A program made the position numbers and the translations under genes. From NCBI GenBank assembly GCA_964626845.1, contig CAZVGR010000005.1, positions 36,557-100,556 on the forward strand: 64,000 bases of DNA, read 5' to 3'. The stretch comes from an uncultured Anaerolinea sp. (GTDB taxonomy: Bacteria; Chloroflexota; Anaerolineae; JAAEKA01). Below the pieces are notes generated by a model. The model worked only from the letters and a program-made list of their open reading frames with translations, ran no database searches and had not been told where the DNA came from. This document shows, one piece after another, positions 23,505 to 63,658 of the stretch (the first letter of the stretch is position 1; each line of letters starts with the position of its first letter).

Positions 23505-26500
23505 TCAGTCACGCAACCGTTGTCTGGCCAGCCTGCTGGCTCCGGCCGCGGCCGCCAGAAGGGCCAGCGCAGGCAGCCAGGCGGGCGCGCCGGTCTGCGC
23601 CGCGGCATGGAAGCTGCTCCAGACAACGGCGGTGGGCGCATCGAACCGCGCCGAGACCGGACCAAAACGCTGCACAGAGCCATCCAGCGCCACAGCCTCC
23701 AGCCAATACCAGTAAGTCTCGCCAGGCAGCACATCCAGGTCGTCGTAGGCATAGAAGAAGCCGCCCGATGCGCCGGGGGACTGCGCCGGGATAAACGCCA
23801 ACAGATGCTGCCCGCCCTGGCTGGCGTCACTGCGCAGCAGGTGGAAGCCCTGGTTGTCCAGCTCGCTGGCCGTTTGCCACTGGATCTGCACGCGATCCGG
23901 CTGGCTGACCGCGCTCAGCATCTCCAGGGTCACGGCCAACGGCGTCTGGAACAAGGCTGAAACCGGCCCGAAGCTCTGGGTACTGCCGTCCGTGTCGAGA
24001 GCCTCCAGCCAGTACCAATAGGTGACGCCTGAGATCACGTCGTAGTCTTTGTACTCATACATGAAGCCGGCGGGACTGCCCGTGGACTGAGAGGGGATGT
24101 AGGCCAACGACTGGGGCGGCCCCTGGCTGGAGGTGCTGCGCAACAGGTAGAAGCCGCGGTTGTCCAGCTCGCTGGCCGTCTCCCATTCGACCAGGATATG
24201 GTCCATCTTACGCTCGGCCGCGAACGACACCATGGTCACAGCCGTCGGGCCGACGATGATGGGCGTGGTGTACACGTCCAGGCCCTCTGCCAGATTGGTG
24301 TAGCCGCTGGGCGGGATGATCTCGGCCATCATCACCAGATCGGCCGGGCCTGCAGTGGGCGCCACCGTCCCAACCACGGTAATCGTGATGATCCCGCCCG
24401 GCTGCAAGGTAAGGGTCTGGCTGAAACCGTTGCTGCCGCTAGGCGTCGTGCAGGAAGAGCCGCTGGAGGCGACGCATTGCCAGGTGACGCTGCCAAGCTC
24501 CTCTGGCAACGTGTCGCTGACAATGGGCGAGGCTGCAGTCGGGCCGTTGTTGGTGATCACAATCGTGTGCGTGATCAGATTCCCCTGCTTGACTGGGTTG
24601 GGTGTGCCGCTGATCTTCAACGGAATGTTGATCACCGGCTGCAGCACGCTGCCCGCGCCGCTCTCGCCGCTGTAGCTGATAGCATAGCCGTTCTGGTAAC
24701 TGGTAGTCGCCCGGTTAGTCAGCAGATTGCTGCCGCTGGCCAGCACGGTGATGGTATGGCTGTCAGTGGCCAGACTGCCCAGCCCGTCGCGCGCCGTTAC
24801 CACCGCCGTGTAGACGCCCGGCGTGCTGTAGGTGTGCTCGATGCTGGTGTTGGTAGTATACGACGCGCTCTGGTTGTCCCCGAAGCTGATGGTGTAGCTG
24901 AAGGGCAGCTTGCCGCGCAGCAATGGCAACATGGAAAACGTGACTTCTTCATCTTCCAGAGTTATCGATGGGGCGGTGACAAAGGGCACCGAGCGGCTAA
25001 AGGAGGCCTCCAGACGGTACAACAGGGCTGGATGGTCCTTGCCGCCGTATTCGGGGTGGCCGCCGTGGGTGCTGCCGGTGAGGCGCAGGGCCAGCAGGTT
25101 GACGCCGGCCAGCACGGCGCTGCTGACATCAGTGGCCGCGGCGTGACCCGCGCCATACTGAGTGGCCATATAGCGGCCATTGACGTAGATATCGACGATG
25201 TCGTCGCTGGCCGTCTGCAAGCTGGCCTGAAAACCGCGCGCGTTGGGCGGCAGGTAGAAGTATTGGCGGAAGAAGCTGTAGTTGCGGTCGATCTGCGGCT
25301 CCGGCTCGACCGCCACCCACTCGGCGCCCAGGGTTGCAGCCGGCAGCCAGTAAGGCTCGGTCGTCGCCGGGGGCTTCACGGTCTCCCAGAGCGAGTCGTC
25401 AAAGATCGGGCCATCAAGCTGTGGATTGCTCGTCCAGCCGGCCGGGCCAACCGGGTTGGCGTCGCCCCAGTAGCCCAGGATCGTGGAACAGCCCGCCGAG
25501 AAGCACCACGGACTGCTCACCGACTTGACGGTCGAGGTCAGAACCAGTGAACCTGAGGCGCTCTCGCTGCTGGCGGTGGGGGCTGACTGGCTGGCGCCGC
25601 CCGCGCCCACCCCGACCGTGACGGCAAAGCTGACCTGCCCGGTGGCGCCGACCCCCAGGTTGCCCAGATTCCAGGTGACCTTGCCACCGTTGGCGCTGCC
25701 GCCGCCGCTGATGCTGCCCGCAACCAGTGTCGTGTTGGCGGGGATCACATCGCTGATGACAACGCTGCGGGCTGCGACCGGGCCATCGTTGCGATAGACA
25801 ATGGTGTACGTGATCTGTCCGCTGACATAGCTCTGGCCGGCCACGCTCTTTTCCAGCACCAGGATGGGGCGAGCAATGCGCACGATATCCTCGGCGCTGT
25901 TGGTGCTGGGGTCCGGGTCTGGCCCACCAGCGCCGTCGTCGTCGATCTCCACCCGGTTGATGGTCAATTCGCCTGAGGCCGAAGCATCGACGGTGGCGGT
26001 CAGCACGATGGCGTGGGGACCATCGACAGCCACCTCGCCCAGGGTCCAGGTGACGACGCCAGCAGCATGGATGCCGGGTGGAGCGCTCTCCACGTAGGTC
26101 ATCCTTGGGTCCAGGGTGTCGGTGATGAGCACGCCCGAGGCCACCTGGCTGCCTGTGTTGCTGTAGGTGAGCGTGTACCGGACAGTCTGGTTGGCCTCGA
26201 AGTAGGTGCCGCTGTGGCTCTTGCGGATCACCAGGTCGGGCTGGGCGTTAACCGCCATCACCGCGGTGGACTGGTTGTCGGCCAGCACAGGGTCGCCCAC
26301 AGACGAGGTAATGTAGGCCGTGTTGCTGATCTGCTCCACGCCGGCCGGCAGCACATCGGTGATGCGCACGGTGAAGCTGATCACCCCGCTGGCGCCGGCT
26401 GCCAGATCGCCCAGGCTGAAACTGATCACCCGGCTTGCGCTGATATATTGCCCCTGATCTTCGTCATCGCCATCCGTCACGGGGCTGCCGTTCTGCTTCA

Positions 26501-29049: not shown

Positions 29050-29112
29050 GTTACTACTCAGGTGCCGGGCACTTGCACCCCAAGTGCCCGGCACCTGGGC
29101 CTGAGTAGTAAC
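29050..29112. mobile_element. MITE-like element family 1 (63 bp, minimal copy: TIRs GTTACTACTCAGGTGCCGGGCACTTG / CAAGTGCCCGGCACCTG-GGC-CTGAGTAGTAAC) with perfect 8-bp TSD GTTACGCG
   Basis: Direct repeats GTTACGCG at 29042-29049 and 29113-29120. Lies in the divergent promoter region between the surface-giant gene and the phosphoesterase gene. Confidence 0.8.
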
Positions 29113-31464: not shown

Positions 31465-31579
31465 GTTACTTACTACTCAGCCATAGGTGCCGGGCACTGG
31501 AATCTGCGCCTGCAACGAAGTCTGTGGAGCCGATCTCAGCCGCCCATGAGCTGCAAGTGCCCGGCACCTGAGTAATAAC
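31465..31579. mobile_element. MITE-like element family 1 (115 bp), degenerate TSD (CACAGATC / CACAAAAC, 6/8)
   Basis: Ends GTTACTTACTACTCAG...CCATAGGTGCCGGGCAC and CAAGTGCCCGGCACCTGAGTAATAAC. Left arm carries a 6-nt insertion (CCATAG), as in the 57119 copy. Confidence 0.7.
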
Positions 31580-33244: not shown

Positions 33245-33760
33245 TTAGGGCTGGCGCACCTCGGCCTCGACCGTCAACGTGGCGCCGCTGGCAAATTGGA
33301 GCGTCAGCGGGAACTTGTCGCCCACGTTCAGGTCGCGGGTCAGGCCGATCAGCATGACGTGCAGGCCGCCGGGCCGCAGCTCGACCTGGCCGCCGGCCGG
33401 CACCTCGATGCCGCCCTGGACCTCGGCCATGCGCATCACGTCCCCTTCCATCTTTGTCTCGTGGATCTCGATGGCGTTGGACACATCCGCCTGGGCAGCC
33501 ACCAGCCGGTCGGCCGCGGCGCTGCCGTTGGCCAGCACCATGTAGACCGCGCTGTTGGCGCCGCCGTGCTGCATCTGCTGGCTGTCGCCCTCCATCGGCA
33601 TGCTGCCCATCATCTTGGCCGGCCTGGCCCAGACGTTCTGGGCGGTGACGCCCTGGCTGGCCGCCGGCGCCGGCGGCGGCTGGGTGCAGGCTGTGGCCGC
33701 CAGCAACAGGACCATGATTGCTGCCAGCAGCAAGTAGACGCGTGCGTTGCGATACTGCAT
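33245..33760 (-). CDS. Periplasmic copper chaperone PCu(A)C-like lipoprotein (DUF461)
   Basis: Lipobox LLAATAC. Conserved H-x-M-rich copper site IEIHETKMEGDVMRMAE. Met/His-rich insert GSMPMEGDSQQMQHGG. Confidence 0.7.
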   Translation of the reverse strand: MQYRNARVYLLLAAIMVLLLAATACTQPPPAPAASQGVTAQNVWARPAKMMGSMPMEGDSQQMQHGGANSAVYMVLANGSAAADRLVAAQADVSNAIEIHETKMEGDVMRMAEVQGGIEVPAGGQVELRPGGLHVMLIGLTRDLNVGDKFPLTLQFASGATLTVEAEVRQP

Positions 33761-33772
33761 AGTGGTTCTCCT

Positions 33773-34318
33773 CTAGAAGTGCATGGATGTGCGGACAAAG
33801 GCCAGCGCCCCGTCCAAATCGACTATCTCACCGCCGAAACCAGCCTGAAAGCGCTGGGCGTCAGCCAGAGCCTCGAAGGCCAGCACGGTGGGCGTGCAAC
33901 AGATGGCAATCTCCGGCGCAGCCAGGTAGGCGGCGCTGCGTCCGTTGACGGTCCGGCCAAAGAGAAAATCGGTCACCAGGATGCTGGTAATCGCCTCGGC
34001 GCTGCGGGCCAGCGCCATCAAGCCGCAGTGGGGACAGCAAGCCAGGCGCTGGCTGCCATCGCTCCAGTGCAGGACGACCTGAGTGCGCGGGTTGAGCGAG
34101 CCATAACAGGCCAGGCAGCGCTCGCCGGCCGGCGCTGGCTCTGCGGGCACGGCGCCGCCGCGCACCTTGCGCAGCCGGCCGGCCTGGGCCAGTTGGTCCA
34201 GATCGCGGTGGATGGTCATGGTCGACACACCTAGCGTGTGAGCCAGATCGTCGATGCCAACCGCTCCCTGGTCGGCCAAGCGATCCAGAATATGGCGTTG
34301 ACGGTGGTCAGGGTTCAT
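33773..34318 (-). CDS. DeoR-type HTH transcriptional regulator fused to a C-terminal TRASH-like metal-binding domain (C-x2-C-x22-C-x3-C)
   Basis: Likely start ATG 34318 (MNPDHRQRHILDRLADQG...). The track's GTG at 34348 adds 10 aa. HTH GIDDLAHTLGVSTMTIHRDLDQL. TRASH-like CLACYGSLNPRTQVVLHWSDGSQRLACCPHCG. Confidence 0.65.
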   Translation of the reverse strand: MNPDHRQRHILDRLADQGAVGIDDLAHTLGVSTMTIHRDLDQLAQAGRLRKVRGGAVPAEPAPAGERCLACYGSLNPRTQVVLHWSDGSQRLACCPHCGLMALARSAEAITSILVTDFLFGRTVNGRSAAYLAAPEIAICCTPTVLAFEALADAQRFQAGFGGEIVDLDGALAFVRTSMHF

Positions 34319-34360
34319 GGGTTGTGCGATTCCATGTGATATCAACACAGATTTCGCAAC

Positions 34361-35281
34361 TTATAACACAAAGCGCTTCTGGGTGTCAAATAGCACGGCG
34401 TCCACGAAGGTCCAGAACGCGTTGGTGGCTGGTGAATGGGCGACCTGAGAGTCGTCGACCAGGTAGAGCCAGCGCTTCATAGCCACCCCCTCGATCTCCA
34501 CAATCTTGAGCTTGCCCACAGGCAGATGGCGCTGCACCGTGACCCTGGGCACAAAACTGAGCCCAATGTGCTCCTCCACCGCCATCAGGATCGCCTCTGA
34601 GTTGTCCAACACCAGCACAACTTCCATGCGGTCGAAATCGACTCCCACCTGGTCCAGCGTCTCGACCAGAGTCATTTGGGTGCCTGAGGACATCTCCCGC
34701 AGCACAAAGCGCTCCTGATAGAGCTCGCGCGGCGCGATCGAGGCGCGTGCGGCCCAGGGATGGTCGGCCGGCGCCACCAGGACGATCTCGTCCTCGAAGA
34801 AGCGGCGAAAATGCAGGCCCGCGCGCTGGACGCGATCGCTGGTCACAGCTACGTCGACGACGCCGGCGTGCAGCCAGTCCAGCACCTGGCTGCGCGCGCC
34901 CACCTTGACTGCCGCGCGCACCAAGGGATAGCGCTGGCGGTAGCGGGCCAAAATACCAGGCACCAGATACTTGCCCGACGACGTGGAACAGCCCAGGGTA
35001 AGATGGCCCGCCACCTCGCCGGCCAGCGCGTGCGCAGCCTCTTCTACCTGGCGGCAGTTGCGGATCAGGTCCTGCACCAGCGGCAGCAACACCTCGCCGG
35101 CCGGGCTGAGGCTGATACGACGGCCATTGCGCTCGAAAAGCGCCACGCCCAACGACTGCTCCAGCCCCTGGATGTGCTGGCTGACGGCCGGTTGGCTCAT
35201 GTGCAAGCGCTGGGCGGAGCGGGTGAAGTTCTCGGTTTCGGCTGCGATGGTGAAGATTTGCAGGCTTTCTAAATCAAGCAT
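34361..35281 (-). CDS. LysR-family transcriptional regulator
   Basis: N-terminal HTH LESLQIFTIAAETENFTRSAQRLHMSQPAVSQHIQGLEQSLGVALFER, plus C-terminal substrate-binding fold. Divergent from the rhodanese/cytochrome operon. Confidence 0.85.
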   Translation of the reverse strand: MLDLESLQIFTIAAETENFTRSAQRLHMSQPAVSQHIQGLEQSLGVALFERNGRRISLSPAGEVLLPLVQDLIRNCRQVEEAAHALAGEVAGHLTLGCSTSSGKYLVPGILARYRQRYPLVRAAVKVGARSQVLDWLHAGVVDVAVTSDRVQRAGLHFRRFFEDEIVLVAPADHPWAARASIAPRELYQERFVLREMSSGTQMTLVETLDQVGVDFDRMEVVLVLDNSEAILMAVEEHIGLSFVPRVTVQRHLPVGKLKIVEIEGVAMKRWLYLVDDSQVAHSPATNAFWTFVDAVLFDTQKRFVL

Positions 35282-35299
35282 GGCAGGCGACCTCTGTGA

Positions 35300-35411
35300 G
35301 TTACTCTACTCAGGTGCCGGGCACTTGCAGCTCATGTGCGGCTTGAATAGGTTCGGCAGACATCGCTGCAAACGTAGATTCAAGTGCCCGGCACCATAGC
35401 TGAGTAGCAAC
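35300..35411. mobile_element. MITE-like element family 1 (112 bp) with perfect 8-bp TSD CTCTGTGA, inserted in the LysR/cytochrome-operon divergent promoter region
   Basis: Ends GTTACTCTACTCAGGTGCCGGGCACTTG ... CAAGTGCCCGGCACCATAGCTGAGTAGCAAC. TSD at 35292-35299 and 35412-35419. Confidence 0.8.
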
Positions 35412-35440
35412 CTCTGTGATAAAATTCCCGAATAGAAGTA

Positions 35441-35457
35441 TATCAGAGACTCTGATA
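35441..35457. promoter_or_regulatory. Perfect 17-bp palindrome TATCAGAG-A-CTCTGATA (contains a T-N11-A LysR-type box) in AT-rich promoter region
   Basis: Read directly. Lies ~90 bp upstream of the operon start (35550), between the divergent LysR gene and the operon. Confidence 0.45.
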
Positions 35458-35549
35458 ATAAAACATGATCTATATCATACGCTTTTATCAAAAATCCTGG
35501 TATGATTGGGCCGTTGCAGACTATACTCAAGGTTTCTCAGGAGGAGACT

Positions 35550-37556
35550 ATGTCTCGTTTGCGTGTTCTACCAATCCTATCGATCCTGCTGATCCTGGCG
35601 CTGCTGGTTGCAGGCTGCGGCCAGCAAGCCACGCCAGAGCCGACGCCCGTCCCGCCGACAGCTACCCCCGTGCCGCCGACGGCCACGCCGGTCCCGCCCA
35701 CGGCCACCCCTGTGCCGCCCACGGCTACGCCGGTGCCGCCAACACCCACGCCTGTACCGCCCACGCCAACCCCCGAACCGGAACCAGAGTCGGGCGTGTT
35801 GGATGATGCCATGGCCTTCTTTGGCGCTGGCGTGAAGTTGATCTCGGCTGACGCCCTCTACGAGAACCTCAACGACGGCGACGCCAGCAACGATCCCTTC
35901 ATCATCTCATTGCGCTCGGCCGAACATGACGCCGTAGGCCAGATCCCAGGCGCCTACAACATCAGCGTCAAGGAGCTGATGTCACCCGAGGTGCTGGCCA
36001 CCCTGCCCACCGACCGGCAGATCGTCGTCTACTGCTACACCGGCCAGAACTCAGCCCAGGCCGTGACAGCGCTGAACATGGCCGGCTTCGACGCAGCCAG
36101 CCTCACCTATGGCATGAGCGGCTGGACCACCGATCCGGCGGTCTATGTCAACCGCTTCAACGCAGAAACGACCCCGCGCCAGTTCGCAACCTTCACCGAC
36201 ATGCCGGAATGGAGCGACGAGACCTTCGCGCTGGCCACGCCATTGGCCGAGACCAGCGCCGAGGCCGCCTACGCCTACCTGAGCGCCAACGGCGCCAAGA
36301 TGATCGCGGCCGATGCGGTGTACGAGAACCTCAACGACGGCGACGCCAGCAACGACCCCTTCATCATCTCGGTGCGGGCCCAGGAAGACTACGCCAAGGG
36401 ACACCTGCCTGGCGCGCTGTGGACGACGCCCAAGGACCTGTTCACCCCTGAGATGCTGGCCAAGCTGCCCACCGACCGCCAGATCCTGGTCTACTGCTAC
36501 ACCGGCCAGAACTCCGGCTTCGTGGTGGCGGGTCTGAACATGCTGGGCTACGATGCCATCAGCCTGACCCACGGCATGAGCGGCTGGACCGACGATCCGG
36601 ATGTCTTCGTTCGCCGCTTCAACGCCGAGACGACGCCGCGCAACTTCCCCACCGAGGCTGGCGCCGTGCGCTCGCTGGCTGCCGGCTCGGACGGCGACCT
36701 GGCCACGGCCGCAGATGCTTACTTCAGCGGCGGCCCGAAGACTATCACCGCCGACGCGCTGTTCGAGATCCTCAACGACGGCGACGACAGCAACGACCCG
36801 ACGATCATCTCGGTGCGCAAGGCTGAGGATTTCGCTAAGGGCCACCTCCCTGGCGCGATCAACCTGACCCACGCCCAGCTCTTCACGCCCGATGTGCTGG
36901 CGACGATCCCGCAGGACAAACCGGTGGTGGTCTACTGCTACACCGGCCAGACGGCCAGCCAGGCAGTCTCGGTGCTGAACATGCTGGGCTACGACGCCCG
37001 CAACCTGGTCTTCGGCATGAGCGGCTGGACGACAGACCCTGAGGTCTACGTGACCCGCTTCGACCCCACCAAGGCCAACGACTTCCGAACGACCACGGAA
37101 GGCTTTGAGGCTGAGGGCGAGTACGACCTGCCCGAGCCGCTGGCGGCCACCGTGCTGGATGCAGCAGCGGTCTACTTCGGTGCAGGGCTGAAGACAATCC
37201 AGGCGCCGGCGTTGTACGAAAATCTGAACGACGGCGACGAGAGCAACGATCCCTACATCATCTCGGTGCGTTCGGCAGAGCACTACGCACTGGGCCATTT
37301 GCCAGGCGCAGTCTGGTACGACGCCAAGGCGCTGTTCACGCCAGACAGCCTGAGCACCCTGCCCAACGACCGCCCCATTGTGGTCTACTGCTATACCGGC
37401 CAGACCGCCAGCCAGGTGACTTCGGTGCTCAATCTGTTGGGCTACGATGCCAGCAACCTGGTGTTTGGTATGGGCAACTGGACCAACGATCCTGCGGTCT
37501 ACGTCAATCGCTTCAACCCGGAGACGACCCCGCGCGACTTTCCGGTTGAGAAATAG
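35550..37556 (+). CDS. Lipoprotein with four tandem rhodanese (sulfurtransferase) domains, each retaining the catalytic Cys (CYTGQ)
   Basis: Start MSRLRVLPILSILLILALLVAGC with strong RBS AGGAGG (the track ORF starts 48 nt earlier). PT-rich linker (TATPVPP x4). Four repeats ending ...VVYCYTGQNSAQ / LVYCYTGQNSGF / VVYCYTGQTASQ / VVYCYTGQTASQ. Confidence 0.85.
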   Translation: MSRLRVLPILSILLILALLVAGCGQQATPEPTPVPPTATPVPPTATPVPPTATPVPPTATPVPPTPTPVPPTPTPEPEPESGVLDDAMAFFGAGVKLISADALYENLNDGDASNDPFIISLRSAEHDAVGQIPGAYNISVKELMSPEVLATLPTDRQIVVYCYTGQNSAQAVTALNMAGFDAASLTYGMSGWTTDPAVYVNRFNAETTPRQFATFTDMPEWSDETFALATPLAETSAEAAYAYLSANGAKMIAADAVYENLNDGDASNDPFIISVRAQEDYAKGHLPGALWTTPKDLFTPEMLAKLPTDRQILVYCYTGQNSGFVVAGLNMLGYDAISLTHGMSGWTDDPDVFVRRFNAETTPRNFPTEAGAVRSLAAGSDGDLATAADAYFSGGPKTITADALFEILNDGDDSNDPTIISVRKAEDFAKGHLPGAINLTHAQLFTPDVLATIPQDKPVVVYCYTGQTASQAVSVLNMLGYDARNLVFGMSGWTTDPEVYVTRFDPTKANDFRTTTEGFEAEGEYDLPEPLAATVLDAAAVYFGAGLKTIQAPALYENLNDGDESNDPYIISVRSAEHYALGHLPGAVWYDAKALFTPDSLSTLPNDRPIVVYCYTGQTASQVTSVLNLLGYDASNLVFGMGNWTNDPAVYVNRFNPETTPRDFPVEK

Positions 37557-37681
37557 TCGATCTTCCCCTGCTGGTCAGCGCTGCCAAGGCGCTGACCAGG
37601 CGCACACGTGGGTGACTCTGCCTGCCTCACCAGCCAATGGTGAGGCAGGCAAGTCCCTTTTTTGGAAAGGAGCCCCCTGAA

Positions 37682-38035
37682 ATGCAGATAAAGGCGAAAC
37701 GACGCTGGCTGTGGGGGTTGGCGGCCATCGCTGTGGTGCTGATTGGCGTCGCCATTTTCCAGCCGGCCTTTGGCGGCGAGCAAGCGGCCCTCCCTGCGGT
37801 GGATGCCGTGGCGGCGCTGCCTGCGGTCGATCTGGTCCAGGCCGAGCCTGCCCCGGCCGAAGTTCAGCCGGCTGAACCATCGTCGTCCGTGGAACTAAGC
37901 GATCACGAGGCGCCGGTTGCGCAGACGCCGTCGTCCGACAACTGCATCGCCTGCCACACCAACCAGGCCCTGCTCCAGCAACTGGCCGTCGAGCCAGAAA
38001 AGGTCAAGTCGGAGCTGGCCGGCGGCGAGGGCTGA
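37682..38035 (+). CDS. Membrane-anchored monoheme c-type cytochrome (possibly the N-terminal part of the following decaheme gene, see findings)
   Basis: RBS GGAAAGGAG. MQIKAKRRWLWGLAAIAVVLIGVAIF (TM/signal anchor), CIACH. In the same frame as the next ORF, separated by a single TGA. Confidence 0.6.
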   Translation: MQIKAKRRWLWGLAAIAVVLIGVAIFQPAFGGEQAALPAVDAVAALPAVDLVQAEPAPAEVQPAEPSSSVELSDHEAPVAQTPSSDNCIACHTNQALLQQLAVEPEKVKSELAGGEG

Positions 38036-38044
38036 GCTGGCGAG

Positions 38045-39151
38045 TTGCCTCCGTTGGAGGCATGGCAAAAGGTCCTGGTGAGCGAAAAGTTCCTGACGGA
38101 CGACGTACACAGCAAGCCTGGCTGCATCGCCTGTCACGGCGGCACGCCTGGCGTGGTCGACAAGGAACAGGCCCATACCGGGATGTACAAGCTGGCAGCA
38201 GCGAACCCAGACCGCGCTTGCGGCGGCTGCCACGTGGCCGTCGTCGACCAGGCGCAGACCAGCTCGCATCGCCTGCTGCCCGGCTATCTGACCGTCATGT
38301 CGGAGCGCGGCGCAGACTTCACGATGCCAGAAACGGTGCGGGCCTACACCACCCATTGCACCAAGTGCCACGCGACCTGCGGCGACTGCCACATCAGCCG
38401 GCCCCAGGCGCTGGACGGCGGCCTGATCGATGGACACGTGGTCAAGCGAGTGGCCTCGGTGTTCACTACCTGCGGCGGCTGTCATAGCGCGCGCATCGCC
38501 GACGAATACAGGGGCGCCCATGAGGGCATCCCGGCTGATGTCCACTGGCAAAAGGCAGGTATGCCCTGCACCCGCTGCCACACCATGGAGGAGTTCCACG
38601 AGGGCCAACACGGCACGCGCTACGACTCCGAACCCAGCGTAGACTGCATCGACTGCCACCAGGAAGATGTGCAACTGGGCGGCGACAACTTGCAGCACAC
38701 CATCCACACCAACACTGTGCAGTGCCACGTTTGCCACTCAGCCGGCGAGTACAAGTCCTGCTTCACCTGCCACACCGGCGAGGACGACAAGGGCATTCCC
38801 TACTACACCACCGAGCCATCGCAGATGACCTTCAAAATCGGCCGCAACCCGATCCAGAGCGAGAGCCGGCCCTGGAACTACGTGCTGCTGCGCCATGCGC
38901 CCACCAATCCCGACCTGTGGGCCTTCTACGGCGACGACCTGCTGCCGACCTTCGACAACCTGCCCACATGGAAGGCGACGACGCCGCATAACATCCAGAA
39001 GATCACGCCACAAAACGCTACCTGCAATAGTTGCCACGGCCAGGAGGAGTTGTTCCTCACCGAAGCCGATGTGGCGCCCGACCTGCTGGAGGCCAATCGT
39101 CGTGTGATCGTGACCAGGATCCCGCGTACGCTGCCGGAGGTCGAGCCATGA
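38045..39151 (+). CDS. Decaheme c-type cytochrome (10 CXXCH), no own signal peptide
   Basis: TTG-start ORF. CIACH, CGGCH, CTKCH, CGDCH, CGGCH, CTRCH, CIDCH, CHVCH, CFTCH, CNSCH. Stop overlaps the next start (ATGA). Confidence 0.7.
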   Translation: MPPLEAWQKVLVSEKFLTDDVHSKPGCIACHGGTPGVVDKEQAHTGMYKLAAANPDRACGGCHVAVVDQAQTSSHRLLPGYLTVMSERGADFTMPETVRAYTTHCTKCHATCGDCHISRPQALDGGLIDGHVVKRVASVFTTCGGCHSARIADEYRGAHEGIPADVHWQKAGMPCTRCHTMEEFHEGQHGTRYDSEPSVDCIDCHQEDVQLGGDNLQHTIHTNTVQCHVCHSAGEYKSCFTCHTGEDDKGIPYYTTEPSQMTFKIGRNPIQSESRPWNYVLLRHAPTNPDLWAFYGDDLLPTFDNLPTWKATTPHNIQKITPQNATCNSCHGQEELFLTEADVAPDLLEANRRVIVTRIPRTLPEVEP

Positions 39152-40284
39152 CCACACGCACCTACGCGGCTGGGATGATCGTTGTCCTGGCAACCCTCGC
39201 TCTGGCCGGCCTGCTCTTTGCGGCGCAGCCAGCCAAAGCTCAGGAGACTCCCCCGCTCCCTGGCAGCGCCAATCCGGACAACGTCGCCTGCCTTGCCTGC
39301 CACCGGCAGGAGGGGCTGCACCTGGTGTTCCCATCGGGCGAAGCGCTGCCAGTCACTATGGACGCCACAGAGCTGCTCGGATCGGTCCACGCTACGTTGG
39401 CCTGCCAGGACTGTCACACCGACATCGCCGGCTACCCCCACGGCGCGCCGCCAGCCAACGACCATCGCGATCTGCAGATCCACTACAGCCATAGCTGCGC
39501 CAACTGCCATGACCAGCAGGCCATGCAAGAGGTCGACAGCATCCATGCCCAGCTTCAGGCCTCCGGCATGAGAGAAGCCGCCGTCTGCGCCGACTGCCAC
39601 GGCAGCCACAACATCCAGCCGATCGACCGGGACAAGCACCCCGAGGTGTCGCCTACGGCCTCGGCCGAGATCTGTGCGCAGTGCCACAGCGGCATTTATA
39701 ACCAGTTCGCCGACAGCGTGCATGGCGAGGCGTTGATCTCCGGCAACCCCGACGTGCCGACCTGCATCACCTGCCACCCCGCGCACACCGCTACCGATCC
39801 GCGCACGCTGGCCTTCCGCCTGCAATCGCCGGAGATGTGCGGCGAGTGCCACGCCGACCAGGCGCTGATGGCCAAGTACGGCATCTCCACCGAGGTGTTC
39901 GACACCTACGTGGCCGATTTTCACGGCACCACAGTAATGCTGTTCGAGAAGACCCATCCTGGCCAGCCCACCAACAAGGCCGTCTGCATCGACTGCCACG
40001 GCGTGCATGACATCGCCCCGGCTACGCGCGACAGCGAGCTGATCCAGGCCAACATCCTGCCCCGCTGCCAGGAATGCCATCCCGACGCGTCGATCAACTT
40101 CGCGGCCAGTTGGCTGGGCCACTACGCCCCTAACTTCGAGACTGCGCCCTTAGTGACCACAGTGACCTGGTTCTACCGCATCCTGATCCCGCTGGTGATC
40201 GGGTTCTTTGTGGTCTACGTCGGCCTCGACGCCTATCGCCACATCATGGACCGGCGCGAGCGCCGCAAGGAGGTGAAAGCATGA
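39148..40284 (+). CDS. Nonaheme c-type cytochrome with N-terminal signal peptide and C-terminal TM anchor
   Basis: Start MTTRTYAAGMIVVLATLALAGLLFAAQPAKAQE. CLACH, CQDCH, CANCH, CADCH, CAQCH, CITCH, CGECH, CIDCH, CQECH. C-term helix WFYRILIPLVIGFFVVYVGL. ATGA overlap with both neighbours. Confidence 0.85.
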   Translation: MTTRTYAAGMIVVLATLALAGLLFAAQPAKAQETPPLPGSANPDNVACLACHRQEGLHLVFPSGEALPVTMDATELLGSVHATLACQDCHTDIAGYPHGAPPANDHRDLQIHYSHSCANCHDQQAMQEVDSIHAQLQASGMREAAVCADCHGSHNIQPIDRDKHPEVSPTASAEICAQCHSGIYNQFADSVHGEALISGNPDVPTCITCHPAHTATDPRTLAFRLQSPEMCGECHADQALMAKYGISTEVFDTYVADFHGTTVMLFEKTHPGQPTNKAVCIDCHGVHDIAPATRDSELIQANILPRCQECHPDASINFAASWLGHYAPNFETAPLVTTVTWFYRILIPLVIGFFVVYVGLDAYRHIMDRRERRKEVKA

Positions 40285-41378
40285 GCGAAAGCACGCAACG
40301 CTACCTGCGTTTCCTGGTCAGCGACCGGGTGCTGCACCTGCTGCTGCTGATCTCCTTCACGGCGCTGGCCATCACTGGCCTGGTACAGAAGTATGCCGAT
40401 TTTGGCATCTCAGTAACGCTGATCCGGGCTATGGGCGGCATCGAACAGACGCGCGTCTTCCACCACACCTTCGCGGTGGTGCTGATCCTGACCAGCATCG
40501 CCCATGCGGTGCAGGTCGGCTACCGCGTCTACGTGCAGCGCAAATCGATGAGCATGCTGCCAACCCTGCGCGACGTAACCGACTTCGTGGCTGCGGTCAA
40601 ATACAACGCCGGGCTGAGCAAGCAACGGCCTCACTTCCCCCGCTTTAACTTCATGGAGAAGGTCGAGTACTGGGCGGTGGTATGGGGCACGGTGCTGATG
40701 ACCATCACCGGCTACGTGCTGTGGAATCCGGTGTTGATCACCCAGTACCTGCCGGGCGAAGTGGTGCCAGCGGCCAAGATCGCTCACGGCCTGGAGGCGG
40801 TGCTGGCGGTGTTGTCGATCTTGATCTGGCACGCCTACTACGTCCATGTTAAGGTCTTCAACAAGAGCATGTTCACCGGCTATCTGACCGAAGAGGAGAT
40901 GGAGGAAGAACATCCCGCCGAGTTGGAGAAGATTCGCCACGGCAAAGTCTGGCATCCGCCGGCTCCAGAAGTACGCTATAGCCGCATCAAGCTCTATGCG
41001 CCTTTGGCAACGCTCTTTGTGTTGGTATCGGTGCTGGGCACCTGGCGCTGGCTGACGGCCGAAACGACAGCCATCACCACCGTGCCGCGCGCTGTGGTGG
41101 AACAGGCGGCCTATCAACCGGTGCTGCCCACCCCGCGCACGGTCAGGCTGGAGGCGACACCCGCGCCCACGCCGCTCAGCGTGCTGGCTGTCAGCGACCT
41201 GGCCAGCCAGCCGCCGGCCGAGGCGCCGTTGATCCCCCACGCCATCGGCGGGGAGCGCTCGCAGTGCCTGGTTTGTCACGACGTCTACAGCATGATCAAG
41301 CCAGCGCCGCGCGACCATGCCGGCTTGACTGAAGATACCTGCCAGACCTGCCACAGCCCGCAAGGAGAGACGCCATGA
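40281..41378 (+). CDS. Dihaem cytochrome b (FdnI/HydC/HyaC-type, 4-5 TM, quinone-reactive) fused to a C-terminal dihaem c domain (CbcL-like)
   Basis: TM helices with conserved His (HLLLLISF, FHHTFAVVLIL, IAHGLEAVLAVLSILIWHAYYVH). C-term CLVCH and CQTCH. ATGA overlap with both neighbours. Confidence 0.8.
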   Translation: MSESTQRYLRFLVSDRVLHLLLLISFTALAITGLVQKYADFGISVTLIRAMGGIEQTRVFHHTFAVVLILTSIAHAVQVGYRVYVQRKSMSMLPTLRDVTDFVAAVKYNAGLSKQRPHFPRFNFMEKVEYWAVVWGTVLMTITGYVLWNPVLITQYLPGEVVPAAKIAHGLEAVLAVLSILIWHAYYVHVKVFNKSMFTGYLTEEEMEEEHPAELEKIRHGKVWHPPAPEVRYSRIKLYAPLATLFVLVSVLGTWRWLTAETTAITTVPRAVVEQAAYQPVLPTPRTVRLEATPAPTPLSVLAVSDLASQPPAEAPLIPHAIGGERSQCLVCHDVYSMIKPAPRDHAGLTEDTCQTCHSPQGETP

Positions 41379-43054
41379 CTCCCCATGCACGCCCCCATCT
41401 GGCTGGCTGGGCCGTCCTGGCGTTCTTCTGCCTGCTGGCCCTGGCTCTAGGGCCGCAGCCTGCCCACGCCCAGCCGCCTGAGCCGCACCAATTCATGCAG
41501 GACTACAAAGGCCCGGTCACTTGCCGGATCTGTCACGGCGACGTAGCCGACCAGGTGATCCACAGCGTCCACTACACGTGGGAGCAGAAGATGGATCACT
41601 ATAGCCCGGTGGCCGGCAGCATTGCCCGCATCAACTGGCTGGGGATGCTCAACGAGACCCTCAACATCCCCGGCGGCTGCGGCCGCTGCCACGTGGGCAG
41701 CGGCGCGTTGCCTGTGTCCCCTGACCAGGCGACCACCGCCGACAAGAACGGCATCGACTGCCTGATCTGCCACTCGCCAGTTTACGACACCAGCCTGCGC
41801 TTCCCGGTGCAGGACGAAAACGGCAACTGGACGTTGACCCAGGATCGCAACGTGCTGACCGCGCGCCAGGCGCAGCGCCCCACCACCGAGAACTGCCTGT
41901 TCTGCCACCAAAACGTGGGCGGCGGGCCGATGCTCAAGCGCGGGGTGGACTTCGCGCCCATCGAGGACAAGCACGGCGAAGACAGCAAGGCCGATGTCCA
42001 CGCCAGCGCCGGCCTGACCTGCGTTGACTGCCACGCCTCGCAGGACCACAAGATCATGGGCTTTGCGCCCGACATCTGGAGCCGCGACCTGCCCGACCAG
42101 CGCCTGACCTGCGATAGCTGCCACACCTCCGCGCCGCACGCCGATCCGCTGCTCAACGTGCAGCACGCGCGGCTGGATTGCCGTACCTGTCACGTGGAGG
42201 GAACCGGCGGGCTGGTCAGCCGCGACTGGACTGCGCCGCCAGTCTACGATCCGATCACCGAGCTGTATGCGCCGGTGGACGACCTGCGCGCGCCCAACTC
42301 GGTGCAGCCAGTCTATATGTGGCACAACGGCCAGCCGGCGCTGCCAGGCGAACCCTGGCCCGGCAGCCGCTCCGACCTGACGTCGCGCATCCAACCCTTC
42401 AAGCTGTTCCAGGCCACTGCGCCGGTGGACGCCAGCAGCAGCGAACCAATCCCGCTCAAGCTGGGCATCTTCTACACGCAGGGCGACCTGGAGCAGGCCA
42501 TCCGGGTTGGCGCGGCCGAGTCGGGCATGGCCTACAGCGGGTCATGGCAGACCGGCCAGCTCGACGCGCCTTTGCAGATCAGCCACGGCGTGGTGGGAGC
42601 GCAGTATGCCCGCCAGTGCCAGGACTGCCACGTGCCGGACGGCATCATCGACTTCGCCAACATGGGCTACACGCCGCAGGAAGTGGCCGTGTTGAGCACC
42701 ATCAGCTCAGAAAGCGCCGGTCAGCGCCAGCCCTTGCAGATGTCGGTAGTGATCCCGGCCGCGCAGCCGCTGCCCACACCAGTGCTGCTGTCAGGCAACC
42801 TGGAGGCTGCGCGCGGCTTCGGCGTTCAGATCCCGTGGAACCCGTTCCTGGTACTGCTGGCCTCGATCGCCATCGTCGCCGGCGGCGGTTACTGGCTCTA
42901 CCGCCAGAAGCCGGTCGCTGCGCCGCCGCCGGTGCAGACCGCAACGGCAGGAGCACCCGCAACGCCAACACCCGAGGCTACCGCGGCGCAGGACACGCCA
43001 GATGAGGCTGCGGCGGAGCAATCCGCAGTTGAACGATCTACCGGAAGCGACTAA
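41375..43054 (+). CDS. Octaheme c-type cytochrome with signal peptide and C-terminal TM anchor + Pro/Ala/Thr-rich tail
   Basis: Signal AVLAFFCLLALALGPQPAHA. CRICH, CGRCH, CLICH, CLFCH, CVDCH, CDSCH, CRTCH, CQDCH. TM LVLLASIAIVAGGGYWLY. Confidence 0.85.
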   Translation: MTPHARPHLAGWAVLAFFCLLALALGPQPAHAQPPEPHQFMQDYKGPVTCRICHGDVADQVIHSVHYTWEQKMDHYSPVAGSIARINWLGMLNETLNIPGGCGRCHVGSGALPVSPDQATTADKNGIDCLICHSPVYDTSLRFPVQDENGNWTLTQDRNVLTARQAQRPTTENCLFCHQNVGGGPMLKRGVDFAPIEDKHGEDSKADVHASAGLTCVDCHASQDHKIMGFAPDIWSRDLPDQRLTCDSCHTSAPHADPLLNVQHARLDCRTCHVEGTGGLVSRDWTAPPVYDPITELYAPVDDLRAPNSVQPVYMWHNGQPALPGEPWPGSRSDLTSRIQPFKLFQATAPVDASSSEPIPLKLGIFYTQGDLEQAIRVGAAESGMAYSGSWQTGQLDAPLQISHGVVGAQYARQCQDCHVPDGIIDFANMGYTPQEVAVLSTISSESAGQRQPLQMSVVIPAAQPLPTPVLLSGNLEAARGFGVQIPWNPFLVLLASIAIVAGGGYWLYRQKPVAAPPPVQTATAGAPATPTPEATAAQDTPDEAAAEQSAVERSTGSD

Positions 43055-43093
43055 AGTCGCCACTACGAACTCCGACACGGATTGACCTCGAAC

Positions 43094-43131
43094 GGCCCCT
43101 GTTGATGACAATCAACAGGGGCCGTTTCATT
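43094..43131 (+). terminator. Rho-independent terminator after the cytochrome operon (GGCCCCTGTTGAT-GACA-ATCAACAGGGGCC + GTTTCATT)
   Basis: 13-bp perfect stem, 4-nt loop, U-rich tail, 40 nt after the octaheme gene's stop. Confidence 0.7.
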
Positions 43132-45795: not shown

Positions 45796-45899
45796 CGTAA
45801 ACAAATTAACTGCGTATCGGTGCCCGGCACTTTGGCGACGATTCGCACATGATCAGAGGCTCGTGTCAAGTGCCGGGCACCTCAACAACTTTGTTTACG
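45796..45899. mobile_element. MITE-like element, variant subfamily (outer TIR CGTAAACAAA, inner palindromic core GGTGCCCGGCAC...GTGCCGGGCACC)
   Basis: Outer 10-bp inverted repeat CGTAAACAAA / TTTGTTTACG. Core and adjacent segments homologous to the copy at 10066-10131 in opposite orientation. No TSD seen. Confidence 0.5.
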
Positions 45900-49439: not shown

Positions 49440-52034
49440 TCAAGACAGGTCGCCGTTGACAGTCGACGGATCTGGGGTAAACAGGCTGGGCTGGGCGGCG
49501 CCAGACTGGGCCTTCTCCGGCCAGACGGCGCCGATATGCTCGTAAGCCAGCCGCGTGGCGGCGCGGCCGCGCGGCGTGCGGTCCAGGAAGCCCAGTTGCA
49601 GCAGATACGGCTCGACCACGTCCATGATGGTGCCCGAGTCCTCGCTCAGCGCCGCAGCGATGGTCTCCAGCCCCACCGGCCCGCCGTCGAACTTCTCCAC
49701 CAGCAGGCGCAGCACCTTGCGGTCCAGGTCGTCCAGGCCCAGCGCGTCGATCTCCATCAGGCGCAGGGCCTGGTCGGCTGTCTCGGCCGTGATCACGCCG
49801 TCGCCGCGCACCTGGACGTAGTCCCGCACGCGGCGCAGCAGGCGCAGGGCCACACGCGGCGTGCCGCGGGCCCGGCGGGCGATCTCGCTGGCGCCGTCGT
49901 CGCTGATGGTCACCTGCAAGAGCGCGGCCGCGCGGCGCACGATCTCCTCCAGCGCGGCCTGCTCGTAGAAGTCGAAGCGGTAAATGGCGCCGAAGCGCGA
50001 GCGCAGCGGCGCAGTCAGCAGGGCCAGCCGCGTCGTCGCGCCGATCACCGTGAAGCGGGGCAGCTTGAGGCGGATCGAGCGCGCGCTGGGGCCTTTGCCG
50101 ATGACGATATCCAGCGCGAAGTCCTCCATGGCCGGGTAGAGGATCTCCTCCACGGCCCGGCCCAGGCGGTGGACCTCGTCGATGAAGAGGATGTCGCCCT
50201 TGTGCAGGTTAGTCAGGATCGCCGCCAGATCGCCGGCCCGCTCGATAGCCGGCCCGGCCGTCGTCTTCATGGCTACGCCCATCTCGTTGGCCAGGACGTG
50301 GGCTAGCGTCGTGTTGTGATTGAAGAATCCGTTGGCTACAAATGAATGGCTACCAGGAACGACGAAATCATAGGTCGCTGCGAAGCCTTCCTCAATCTGC
50401 TTCACGCGATCCCAATAAATAGCCGGATCTGTCAACGAACATAGCGTTTGGTACTCCGGAGTTTCCTGAATCCAGGGCGGCAGAAGTTCGAGGTAGCGTT
50501 GAATCTGTTGTCGCGTTGGAGTTCGATCGTTGCGACTCGCATGGCTAAACGCCTTATGAGTCGAATGTGGGTGAGGCCCTGATAGATGAAGCAAGGAGCG
50601 TAGACTAGAGTTCGAACATGGAACGAGTTCACTCCGACTCCAGCCGCCTGTTCGCATCCTTAGGCCCTCTGCTCGGTCCCGCTTACGGCCTAGACGAAAA
50701 CTGACAATATCGTGATAGCGCTCGGCGTCGATTCCACCAACGAAGAGTGTCCAGTAGTCTACGGCTTTGATTCTCTTCCGGTTACGGCTAGCAATAATGC
50801 CAAGGTTGGCTAGAAGCAACTGCACTTGTTGGGCGAGTTGTTTTGAGCGCGTACCATATTCTACATAACCTTCTGGCCAGACATTTCCATCAGCATCAAA
50901 CAAGCCTTGCAAGAATCCGATAGCTGTCGAGCGCTCTCCTGATAACACGCTGGCAGGCACCACCTTGTTGGACGCGAGTTCAGCCTTCATCCCTAAGGCA
51001 AGCATGAGATGCCCGATTGTCTGACTGAAACGCAACTGCGGCGCCCTGTCGCCGTACTGTCGTATTTCAGGAGCTTGGCCGAATAGTCTCTGTGCAATCC
51101 GCTGCAATTCAACCTGTATCTCAGGCTCGCTGCAGGTGATAACAAAGGCGGGGGAATTCTGTCCGCGTTCGAAGTGACCATCTCCAACTAGCATTCCCAT
51201 CACGTAAGCCAAGTCCGCGTCAAGATCGATTACGCGAGCTCTGTTGTCGACAAGTTCAGTGGTAAAGCGCCACGGCGAAGCTTCCACGTCAACTGATCGC
51301 CCATCAGTTAGCGAGAGACCCAATCGTTTGGCTGCTACTTCCGGCGTTGGATTCTTGCTGGCTGCACCCATGTAAGCGTGTCTCAGTTCAATGGCTGCGG
51401 GAGGTCTTCCCAGACCATTGACCAAATCTTCGTAGATGTGGCGGATCCTGCAATCCGTCCAAGCGCGTCGCATGCTAGATGCGTCTGGCTGCCAAGATGC
51501 AGACTGCGGTTGACCCCACTGGTTCATGCCGCGACCGATAGCCACATAATCTTCAGTGGAAATCTCTTCAAGGCGTTTCCATTGGGGACCGCTTGGCGTG
51601 GCAACCAACAAGGCATGGTTTGGCGTGCCTTCGATTTCGAAGCCCGCTTTGGTGATGATGCGACGTGTCGTTCCGTGACCACTAGCATAGACGTATGAAG
51701 TCGTTTCGATGCCGTTGAGACCATAGACCAAGGTGCGACAAGGCACGTAAGTATCTGGTGCGAGGGTGTCTGGAATGAACGAATCGAAGGACTTCCATCC
51801 CTGCTCGGTCAGAATGAGCGAGGTGGCAGTGATGCACTTGCCCAGTCCGGGCGGACCATACAAGAGCACATGATCCAGCGACTCGCTGCGTTGCTGGGCG
51901 GCCTGTAAGAGGATCTCCAGGTTGTCGCGCAGGCGGTCCTGGCCGATCATCTCGGCCAGGCGCTTGGGGCGCAGGGCGGCGTCCAGCGCGGCTTCTTCGG
52001 GGCGTTTGCGGGCGGAAACGGTGCGGTCGTCCAT
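49440..52034 (-). CDS. ruvB: Holliday-junction branch-migration ATPase RuvB interrupted by a ~508-aa intein in the Walker-A P-loop
   Basis: N-extein ...[11 protein letters not shown]-extein [13 protein letters not shown]...FIDEVHRL...[14 protein letters not shown] (RuvB sensor/winged-helix regions). 864 aa total vs ~340 for typical RuvB. Confidence 0.9.
50313..51836 (-). other. Intein with LAGLIDADG homing-endonuclease domain inserted between GLGK and TT of the RuvB P-loop
   Basis: Cys1 ([13 protein letters not shown]), C-terminal ...VANGFFNHN followed by +1 Thr. LAGLIDADG motifs [14 protein letters not shown] and [14 protein letters not shown]. Visibly lower GC (~50%) than the flanking extein DNA. 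Confidence 0.8.
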
Positions 52035-57118: not shown

Positions 57119-57229
57119 CGTTACTACTCAGGCATAGGCGCCGGGCACTTGAATCTGCGCCTGCAAGGATGTCTGCCGAGCTTATTCACGCTATGCAGGG
57201 GCTGCAAGTGCCCGGCACCTGAGTTGTAA
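57119..57229. mobile_element. MITE-like element family 1 (111 bp) with perfect 8-bp TSD CTGGCTGC
   Basis: Ends GTTACTACTCAGGCATAGGCGCCGGGCACTTG ... CAAGTGCCCGGCACCTGAGTTGTAAC. TSD at 57111-57118 and 57230-57237. Confidence 0.8.
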
Positions 57230-63546: not shown

Positions 63547-63658
63547 ATTACTACTCAGGTCCAGGTGCCGGGCACTTGCATTTGCGCCTACTAACGAAGT
63601 CTATGAAGCCGATTTTAGCCGTCAATGAACTGCAAGTGCCCGGCACCTGAGTAGCTAC
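63547..63658. mobile_element. MITE-like element family 1 (112 bp) with perfect 8-bp TSD GTTGCATG
   Basis: Ends ATTACTACTCAGGTCCAGGTGCCGGGCACTTG ... CAAGTGCCCGGCACCTGAGTAGCTAC. TSD at 63539-63546 and 63659-63666. Confidence 0.8.

Follow-up and report, generated by a model that had tools for sequence, protein, structure and literature searches.

It was not until 2026 that multihaem cytochromes were shown by experiment to act as selenoenzymes, and this concerned just one family, MccSep, which occurs mainly in Desulfobacterota and Nitrospirota. The Geobacter sulfurreducens representative (ExtKL, GSU2937-2936) is a pentahaem cytochrome with selenocysteine (Sec) that was originally annotated as two genes (PMC13510729). 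It serves as a polysulfide reductase of sulfur respiration and reduces selenite too, with Sec325 acting beside a His/Cys-ligated haem (PMC13510729). The extHIJKLMNOPQS cluster also encodes a rhodanese-like lipoprotein (ExtH), cytochromes with 12, 10 and 4 haems, a Rieske protein and a cytochrome b (PMC5877670) and affects selenite and tellurite reduction (PMC13510729, PMC5877670). ExtKL, GSU2204 and OTR are the only cytochrome-related families in a 2026 review table of prokaryotic selenoproteins (PMC13188914). Here we describe a plus-strand locus at approximately 35.4-43.1 kb of a 64,000-nt stretch of DNA from an uncultured Anaerolinea sp. (contig CAZVGR010000005.1; hereafter the window, whose positions are used throughout). 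The locus encodes a lipoprotein with rhodanese domains (g1), an undecahaem cytochrome c predicted to contain Sec (g2+g3), and three further cytochromes (g4, g5 and g6).

An earlier note on this DNA (the original prediction) had not recognised the subunit combination as a described complex. Indeed, no description of the exact combination was found in the literature, NCBIfam or the PDB, nor did the literature yield any description of cytochrome selenoproteins of Chloroflexota or of the g2+g3 family. The ext cluster is nonetheless the nearest precedent and a close functional analogue. Like MccSep, the g2+g3 product is an extracytoplasmic multihaem cytochrome c with one UGA-encoded Sec that has been annotated as two open reading frames (ORFs) and, like the ext genes, its gene is flanked by those for a rhodanese-like lipoprotein, for additional multihaem cytochromes and for a cytochrome b of the membrane. 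However, it has 11 haems rather than 5, and its Sec is residue 118 of 489 in the sequence GEG-U-AG (GEG-U-GG in the family), whereas MccSep carries Sec in a C-terminal immunoglobulin-like domain, in the sequence DG-U-P. Furthermore, an FdnI-type cytochrome b with fused c-haems serves as the membrane module in place of the Rieske protein and cytochrome b of the ext cluster, there is no porin gene, unlike in the ext cluster, and the hosts are Chloroflexota and Actinomycetota instead of Desulfobacterota and Nitrospirota. Neither g2 nor g3 matched the MccSep/ExtKL model NF040886 (cut-off 250 bits) at E <= 0.01, the only match being g4 with 22.9 bits. The g3 part matched the decahaem ExtN model NF040967 over positions 22-349 of 415 (45.4 bits against a cut-off of 200; E 4.9e-12) and is, by this score, a distant homologue of ExtN but not a member of its family. 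To judge from these comparisons, the g2+g3 product is not orthologous to MccSep, although it follows the same logic.

Several other systems resemble parts of the locus. The Sud protein of Wolinella succinogenes is a periplasmic rhodanese-type polysulfide-sulfur transferase that feeds the polysulfide reductase PsrABC. The scheme proposed below is similar in that an extracytoplasmic rhodanese domain would bring sulfane sulfur to a quinol-linked terminal reductase, and some lineages pair the Sec cytochrome with PsrBC-like Fer4 and NrfD proteins. Unlike Psr, however, the system has no molybdopterin catalytic subunit, and catalysis would take place on the Sec haem protein. Geobacter CbcL (GSU0274) is a HydC/FdnI-type cytochrome b fused to a nine-haem c domain. 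The g5 protein also joins a HydC/FdnI-type dihaem b domain, with candidate His ligands, and c-haems in one polypeptide, but it lacks the nine-haem domain, having only 2 c-haems, and its operon context (Sec, rhodanese) differs. The likeness to CbcL noted in the original prediction is, therefore, a loose one. The g6 protein aligns with Shewanella OTR (1sp3) over eight haem motifs but, unlike OTR, is anchored to the membrane by its C-terminus and has neither Cys64 nor the haem ligand Lys56. Lastly, TsdA, SoxAX and DsrJ are His/Cys-ligated c-haem enzymes that place a chalcogen side chain at the active haem and carry out sulfur-sulfur chemistry. No sequence relation to these enzymes was found, and the chalcogen would here be selenium.

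One gene for an undecahaem cytochrome with predicted selenocysteine

The original prediction divided the locus into six genes, among them one for a monohaem cytochrome anchored by a transmembrane (TM) helix and one for a decahaem cytochrome, separated by a 10-bp junction. The two ORFs (37637/37682-38035 and 38045-39151) are in the same frame, and the only thing that separates them is a TGA. Hence, there is no junction at this position but an in-frame TGA, and the locus is made of five genes rather than six (g1, g2+g3, g4, g5 and g6). The second ORF has no signal peptide and its sole possible start is a TTG inside a conserved motif; on its own, the g3 product could therefore not be exported or acquire haem and mature as a c-type cytochrome. 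Instead, g2+g3 is a single gene for a 489-residue undecahaem cytochrome c with a predicted Sec118 (numbering from the Met at 37682), the key feature that had been missed. The protein starts with an N-terminal signal or anchor helix, followed by haem 1 (CIACH, residues 88-92), Sec118 about 25 residues past this first motif, and ten more CXXCH motifs. The sequence GGAAAGGAG precedes the ATG at 37682, and metagenome gene callers likewise start the first piece (117 aa) at this codon.

The TGA is identical across four independent metagenome assemblies, and three divergent Chloroflexota metagenome-assembled genomes (MAGs) have it in frame within GEG-TGA-AG(E/G)LPPLE(A/V)W. We extended the comparison to a survey of one genome per species, which gave at least 585 relatives and 80 retrieved loci, and combined these with the three MAG loci and the window. 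The in-frame TGA is kept in 79 of 83 loci within the motif (S/E)GEG-U-(G/A)G-x-(L/V)PP(L/V)E(A/V/G)W, and both the frame and the protein conservation continue on either side of it, consistent with purifying selection on one frame. The carriers belong to the Anaerolineae, Caldilineae, Ardenticatenales, Thermoflexales, Dehalococcoidia, Acidimicrobiia and other Actinomycetota and include an isolate, Thermanaerothrix solaris 4228-RoL (NZ_JAUHMF010000001.1), whose predicted peptide across the UGA reads …SEGVG-U-GGDVAPLEPWEK. CAVPPH010000001.1 and CAVPBH010000027.1, two MAG contigs of Mb scale, are carriers as well.

The homologues fall into three classes. The majority are proteins of ~365 aa that begin exactly past the TGA site, which indicates that gene callers split the gene. 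In a second class, the gene is one uninterrupted full-length ORF, and the Sec site is occupied by V, L or A. The third class (n=4) has full-length ORFs with Cys at this site, either as G-C-S (P0049 and P0057) or as C-C-A (P0060 and P0086). In one locus (L046), the Sec cytochrome comes in a version with 20 CXXCH motifs and 833 aa. The fragments are named "hypothetical" or "cytochrome c3 family" in NCBI records, and the JGI label is "thiosulfate/3-mercaptopyruvate sulfurtransferase". The use of a sulfurtransferase label for pure cytochrome fragments is probably explained by the existence of natural rhodanese-cytochrome fusions.

We also identified a hairpin resembling a Sec insertion sequence (SECIS) that starts 11 nt past the UGA and has a G-first triloop. 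Covariation was analysed in 76 distinct sequences with 500 shuffles and slid controls. The hairpin cells are paired in 94.2% of cases, compared to 44-57% in the slid controls, and compensatory changes affect five of the seven stem pairs (e.g., G-C to A-U, C-G or G-C). Double changes occur in 22 cells versus 2.4 in the shuffles, none of which (0/500) reaches 22. Some of the compensatory changes force amino-acid swaps in the protein, such as PPLEA to APLEP, and variant loci have a shifted or compensated hairpin at the same place. For example, the CCUCC-GUU-GGAGG hairpin is replaced in L031, L040 and L070 by a shifted one, CCC-CGCU-GGA-AGCG-U-GGG, with a bulged U and located ~14-34 nt past the TGA, which may be a second SECIS solution within the family. 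The fold of the hairpin region as a single sequence is not significant (z = -1.15), and the evidence for a SECIS is, therefore, comparative. An Rfam scan of positions 35200-38300 matched no family and no SECIS model.

The TGA could alternatively be a true stop or a defect, with g2 and g3 as separate genes or a pseudogene. Gene callers do split the ORFs, no Sec machinery was seen in the window and loci scanned, and the hairpin does not stand out when folded as a single sequence. Yet this alternative leaves unexplained why the TGA is so widely kept, with purifying selection on both sides, and why the hairpin downstream covaries; it is also at odds with the existence of homologues with Cys or with a fused single ORF and with the missing signal peptide of g3. 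We consider it highly improbable and, as far as the comparative data go, already contradicted. Reassignment of UGA (codes 4 and 25) was also rejected, for TGA is the ordinary stop codon of g2+g3, g4 and g5 in the same operon. The family combines a UGA conserved within conserved coding sequence, Cys homologues and a covarying stem-loop just downstream, which makes it very probable that g2+g3 encodes a selenoprotein.

Residues that vary with selenocysteine

We aligned 60 Sec-type, 4 Cys-type and 8 Sec-less proteins and found residues that are retained or lost together with Sec. Arg271 is invariant in the Sec-type (60/60) and Cys-type (4/4) proteins and replaced in every Sec-less protein (8/8). 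His225 is present in 59 of the 60 Sec-type proteins and lost in 7 of the 8 Sec-less ones, while His405 is present in all 60 and lost in 6 of 8. A similar trend is seen for Arg313 and Tyr314. The protein has 11 haem motifs versus 10 conserved His residues outside them, a number that includes His225 and His405, and none of the 60 Sec-type sequences showed a conserved Cys outside the CXXCH motifs and the Sec site. This pattern is compatible with a catalytic pocket in which Sec, Arg and His come together at a haem whose distal ligation is unusual. As the family has no haem-ligating Cys, the haem of the active site may be ligated or capped by Sec itself, and His/Sec ligation would be without precedent. 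When the fused protein was searched against PDB sequences, only a trivial match to a cytochrome c7 motif was returned.

A conserved pair of rhodanese and selenocysteine cytochrome

The gene context was compared by tblastn of the window proteins against all loci and by ORF surveys, with 47 Sec-type loci having enough flanking sequence. A rhodanese gene on the same strand is directly adjacent in 44 of these 47 loci (38 upstream and 6 downstream), while a LysR gene is present within 7 kb in 23 and a g5-like cytochrome b in only 10. The constant partner of the Sec cytochrome is the rhodanese gene, not g4-g6. Furthermore, four loci (L015, L021, L022 and L043) encode in-frame fusions, with between one and six rhodanese domains on the N-terminal side of the haem 1-GEG-U-decahaem protein. 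A functional coupling of the Sec cytochrome with the rhodanese is, on this comparative evidence, highly likely.

The other partners differ between lineages. In Dehalococcoidia, the pair is joined to a Fer4 protein and a 4-TM FdnI-type cytochrome b. A Fer4 + NrfD quinone module is found in L030, L090 and L091, and in L030 a decahaem cytochrome accompanies it and the pair. The two Cys-type loci examined have a LysR gene, the cytochrome gene of the family and the Fer4 + NrfD pair. By contrast, the rhodanese and Sec cytochrome genes stand alone in Acidimicrobiia and in T. solaris, where the LysR gene adjoins them. Thus, the core pair plugs into lineage-specific, interchangeable quinone modules, as is the logic of a terminal enzyme.

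Two of the Sec-less relatives (L023 and L080) have g4, g5 and g6 proteins that are 67-78% identical to those of the window, more so than in the Sec-type locus L007, but the rhodanese and LysR genes are absent. Two others (L092 and L093) have the same g3-g4-g5 core; the gene directly upstream encodes a multihaem cytochrome and not a rhodanese in L092, and the upstream sequence of L093 is too short to tell. All four retain haem 1 and the g4-g6 partners, are without Arg271, His225 and His405, and may represent a neofunctionalised, electron-transfer version of the complex.

These relatives bear on a different function for the locus, that of a haem wire in which a CbcL-like quinol oxidase sends electrons through ~30 haems to extracellular Fe(III), Mn(IV) or electrodes and the rhodanese and Sec are accessory. 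The persistence of g3-g6 without a rhodanese suggests that this sub-complex works on its own, and the 30 haems in membrane-anchored subunits and the cytochrome b-c fusion would suit a wire. The family is also carried by Ardenticatenales, a lineage with iron reducers. However, a wire needs neither selenocysteine nor a sulfurtransferase, and the conserved unit of the 44 loci is a rhodanese with a Sec cytochrome, often with no other cytochromes nearby. The fusions and the joint loss of Sec, Arg271 and the rhodanese point to catalysis instead, and we regard the wire as a very unlikely main function. The original prediction had proposed either a wire from the quinone pool to an external acceptor or the oxidation of thiosulfate- or polysulfide-type substrates feeding the pool. 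The quinone-linked extracytoplasmic module is upheld, and the joint gain and loss of Sec, rhodanese and Arg271, together with the fusions, speaks for redox chemistry of sulfur or selenium rather than for a plain extracellular wire.

Organization of the locus and its partner cytochromes

The ORFs of the original prediction were all found on the plus strand at the positions it gave, and its count of 30 c-haems agrees with the CXXCH tally across the cytochrome ORFs (1+10+9+2+8). The features of the locus are listed in Table 1.

Table 1. Coordinates of the genes and RNA elements of the locus (positions in the window).
Feature	Position	Strand	Basis
LysR-family regulator, divergent	34361..35281	-	NCBIfam NF040786 match
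g1, lipoprotein with four rhodanese domains	35550..37556	+	PF00581, lipobox
Two intergenic hairpins 3' of g1	37571..37664	+	Terminator scan, RNA fold
g2+g3, 489-residue undecahaem cytochrome c, predicted selenoprotein	37682..39151	+	One frame, single TGA
In-frame UGA (U118)	38033..38035	+	Motif GEG-U-AG-E-LPPLEAW
SECIS-like hairpin, 7-bp stem, GUU loop	38046..38062	+	Covariation
g4, nonahaem cytochrome c	39148..40284	+	9 CXXCH
g5, FdnI/HydC-type dihaem cytochrome b with dihaem c domain	40281..41378	+	PF01292, 2 CXXCH
g6, divergent OTR-family octahaem cytochrome c	41375..43054	+	8 CXXCH, TIGR04315
Intrinsic terminator 3' of g6	43090..43127	+	17-bp stem, then UUUCAUU

The g1 protein has the four rhodanese domains attributed to it in the original prediction. 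It matches PF00581 in four stretches (204 bits), each domain with its own active-site loop CYTGQ(N/T)(S/A), so that both the rhodanese fold and the catalytic Cys in the loop are found in its sequence. The domains are preceded by a lipobox (LVAGC) and a Pro/Thr-rich linker. The ATG at 35550, which has AGGAGG 5 nt upstream, is most likely the start codon, rather than positions 35441 or 35502. We propose g1 as the sulfane-sulfur (or selenium) carrier.

The region 3' of g1 is strongly structured (-68.5 kcal/mol, z = -5.55), with none of 200 shuffles folding as well. The second hairpin of this region (37619-37651) has 14 bp followed by a U-run, sits just before the g2+g3 ribosome-binding site and looks like an intrinsic terminator or attenuator. 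Given these hairpins, g1 is not necessarily transcribed together with the cytochrome genes that follow it, and the cells may be able to make more rhodanese than cytochrome. The operon is not translationally coupled throughout. Coupling does apply further downstream, where the predicted ATGA overlaps were found at three junctions (g3/g4, g4/g5 and g5/g6). The strong terminator expected after g6 is present as well (-36.1 kcal/mol, z = -5.89).

The g4 protein has a signal peptide and a C-terminal hydrophobic membrane helix, and its gene has an ATGA overlap at each end. It matches the Cytochrome_C7, Paired_CXXCH and DmsE/NrfB-like models, and we infer that it is an electron-transfer subunit. In the g5 protein, a 4-TM dihaem cytochrome b is followed by another TM helix, the fifth, and by a dihaem c domain on the periplasmic side, in agreement with the FdnI/HydC-type fusion that had been predicted. 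It matches PF01292 (42.5 bits), the formate dehydrogenase gamma subunit model TIGR01583 (63.7 bits) and E. coli FdnI (1kqf_C; E 3.7e-9). FdnI His18, His57 and His155 have clear equivalents in the alignment, and there are His residues that could serve as the fourth ligand. The number of c-haems varies among the g5 relatives (n=1954). The cytochrome b of g5 is the proposed quinol/quinone site.

The g6 protein has a signal peptide and, as the original prediction had stated for both g4 and g6, a hydrophobic TM helix at the C-terminus. It aligns with OTR (1sp3) at E 2.4e-25 with all eight haem motifs in register, but Lys56 is replaced by Ser and Cys64 by Gly, and its score against TIGR04315 is 163 bits, below the cut-off of 375. 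The score and the loss of the distal ligand Lys56 and of Cys64, which lies at the active haem of OTR, place g6 outside OTR proper; by its alignment, it is a divergent member of the OTR superfamily. An orthologue of OTR is encoded elsewhere in the window (2-1354), at the 5' edge noted in the original prediction but on the minus strand. This lipoprotein matches 1sp3 at E 1.5e-123, keeps the equivalents of Lys56 and Cys64 and runs off the window edge. It lies beside a PocR/helix-turn-helix (HTH) regulator gene (1618-2409, minus strand) and is, on sequence, a second and independent haem enzyme for sulfur/nitrogen oxyanions in this neighbourhood.

Upstream of g1, the divergent LysR gene adjoins the locus as described in the original prediction, but the promoter region it had proposed did not yield any sigma-70-like promoter in a consensus scan. 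The LysR protein has its best match in NF040786, 'selenium metabolism-associated LysR', at 232.9 bits (cut-off 250; E 4e-69), and would control the expression of the locus. A palindrome in the LysR/g1 spacer, with a copy also 5' of a second rhodanese gene, was considered as a shared operator and rejected, as it is a dispersed repeat of the repetitive extragenic palindromic (REP) kind. The repeat looks like an intergenic element of the REP or miniature inverted-repeat transposable element type, with arms GGTGCCGGGCACTTGCA ~50 nt apart. The window has 13 such arms, compared to 0.77 expected, at seven intergenic sites (10067-10130, 29061-29095, 31486-31568, 35313-35395, 45865-45881, 57137-57219 and 63564-63647), which include the LysR/g1 spacer and the region 5' of the second rhodanese gene. 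The latter gene (63708-63998, plus strand; PF00581, E 3e-6) starts near the window end as the original prediction had indicated, and is cut by it.

The neighbouring genes on both sides were also considered as parts of the system. The downstream pyridoxal phosphate-dependent Cys/Met enzyme and major facilitator superfamily transporter and the upstream PCuAC, DeoR and phosphoesterase genes were rejected, as they also flank Sec-less loci and thus reflect lineage synteny. Positions 33245-34348 (minus strand), between the metallophosphoesterase and LysR genes, encode a copper chaperone of the PCu(A)C type and a DeoR-HTH protein whose C-terminal domain is rich in Cys; the presence of both next to Sec-less relatives is probably a matter of lineage synteny. 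Elsewhere, the window carries a RuvB gene broken by an intein with a LAGLIDADG homing endonuclease (49440-52034, minus strand; Intein_splicing and LAGLIDADG_3 inside RuvB_N), a run of seven sensor genes (3145-23230, minus strand) for mostly hybrid histidine kinases with PAS, GAF, PocR and seven-TM domains plus a solute-binding protein, and a gene for a 1825-aa DUF11/PKD surface protein (23505-28982).

Proposed function

We propose that the locus encodes an extracytoplasmic, membrane-anchored respiratory module whose catalytic core is formed by the rhodanese lipoprotein and the Sec cytochrome. Its main function would be the reductive turnover of sulfane sulfur or polysulfide, a reading to which we give a probability of about 0.5. 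Both the substrate and the direction of electron flow are deduced, the former by analogy and co-evolution. Polysulfide, elemental sulfur or thiosulfate would donate sulfane sulfur to the rhodanese Cys, which would hold it as a persulfide; an analogous selenium species is also possible. The persulfide sulfur would be passed to the U118 selenolate in a pocket with Arg271, His225 and His405 beside a haem, where the reduction of the Se-S (or Se-Se) adduct by electrons would set free sulfide (or Se(0)/selenide). Menaquinol, oxidised by the dihaem, FdnI-type cytochrome b of g5, would supply these electrons, which would then travel through the c-haems of g5, g4 and g6, the last two in roles we assign tentatively.

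The anatomy of the locus is independent of direction, and electrons could instead flow the opposite way. The Sec/haem site would then oxidise rhodanese-bound sulfane sulfur, thiosulfate or sulfide much as TsdA or SoxAX do, and electrons passing through the haems to the cytochrome b would reduce the quinone pool. The known chalcogen-haem enzymes TsdA and SoxAX, discussed in PMC13510729, are oxidative, and FdnI-type cytochromes b, which g5 matches, classically reduce menaquinone. Carriers of the family include Caldilineae and Acidimicrobiia, groups with many aerobic or facultative members. However, many carriers are Anaerolineae and Dehalococcoidia from anoxic habitats, and the NrfD/PsrC-type partners found elsewhere are typical of reductases that oxidise quinol. 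Furthermore, the sole characterised Sec multihaem enzyme is reductive (PMC13510729). None of these counter-points is decisive; we consider oxidation an unlikely direction.

The reduction or detoxification of selenite or tellurite is another candidate for the main function, with the rhodanese binding Se and the Sec cytochrome producing Se(0) or selenide. This would be in keeping with the family to which the LysR protein is best matched (232.9 bits) and with the weak matches of g3 and g4 to the Geobacter 'selenite/tellurite reduction operon' models. The precedent is similar, as MccSep reduces selenite and the ext cluster affects selenite and tellurite reduction (PMC13510729, PMC5877670). However, selenite is the poorer substrate of MccSep. 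It is also scarce in most of the habitats concerned, yet the system is present in at least 585 species-level genomes. The LysR score, in turn, is under the cut-off, and its family may simply mark the neighbours of selenoprotein genes. We therefore find it quite unlikely that selenite or tellurite is the main substrate.

Several observations weigh against reductive sulfur turnover or against parts of the scheme. The haem-ligating Cys that MccSep needs is absent from the family, so the chemistry of the Geobacter enzyme is not directly transferable, and many host lineages are not known sulfur reducers. No tRNA-Sec was found in the 64-kb window or in 60 related loci scanned, and no selA, selB or selD in the window (Pfam annotation) or in the related loci scanned. 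No rhodanese gene adjoins the cytochrome gene in either of the Cys-type loci examined (n=2). The hairpins that follow g1 speak against strictly joint expression, and transcription of g1 may be partly uncoupled from that of the cytochromes. As a member of the OTR family, g6 could be the catalytic subunit instead. The AlphaFold2 model of the Cys-type protein P0060, made from a 48-row alignment, is mediocre (predicted local distance difference test score of 68.5), and a Foldseek search of the PDB with this model found no match (best E 4.7).

With these points taken into account, we tentatively suggest that the Sec cytochromes are a second, independently evolved family of multihaem selenoenzymes, in which the Sec of an 11-haem cytochrome takes sulfane sulfur directly from a tethered, and sometimes fused, rhodanese. 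It is possible, though short of probable, that all elements of this description hold.

Implications for Chloroflexota and Actinomycetota

The g2+g3 family is not homologous to MccSep and yet follows the same logic, bringing together selenocysteine, haems and a rhodanese partner. It occurs in Chloroflexota and Actinomycetota, two phyla that abound in sediments, groundwater, hot springs and reactors and whose part in the cycling of sulfur and selenium is poorly defined. The genes are systematically mis-annotated, as a small monohaem protein and a signal-less "cytochrome c3 family" or "sulfurtransferase" protein, and metagenomic surveys of sulfur metabolism miss the family as a result. The scheme makes concrete predictions about U118, Arg271, His225, His405 and the transfer from rhodanese to Sec, and T. 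solaris is a cultured carrier. Furthermore, the Sec-type, Cys-type and Sec-less variants, among which the rhodanese is gained and lost in parallel, provide a natural experiment on why enzymes use selenium. If the proposed function is correct, the family would represent an unrecognised respiratory reductase for sulfur or polysulfide (or selenium) in Chloroflexota and Acidimicrobiia, encoded by no fewer than 585 species-level genomes.

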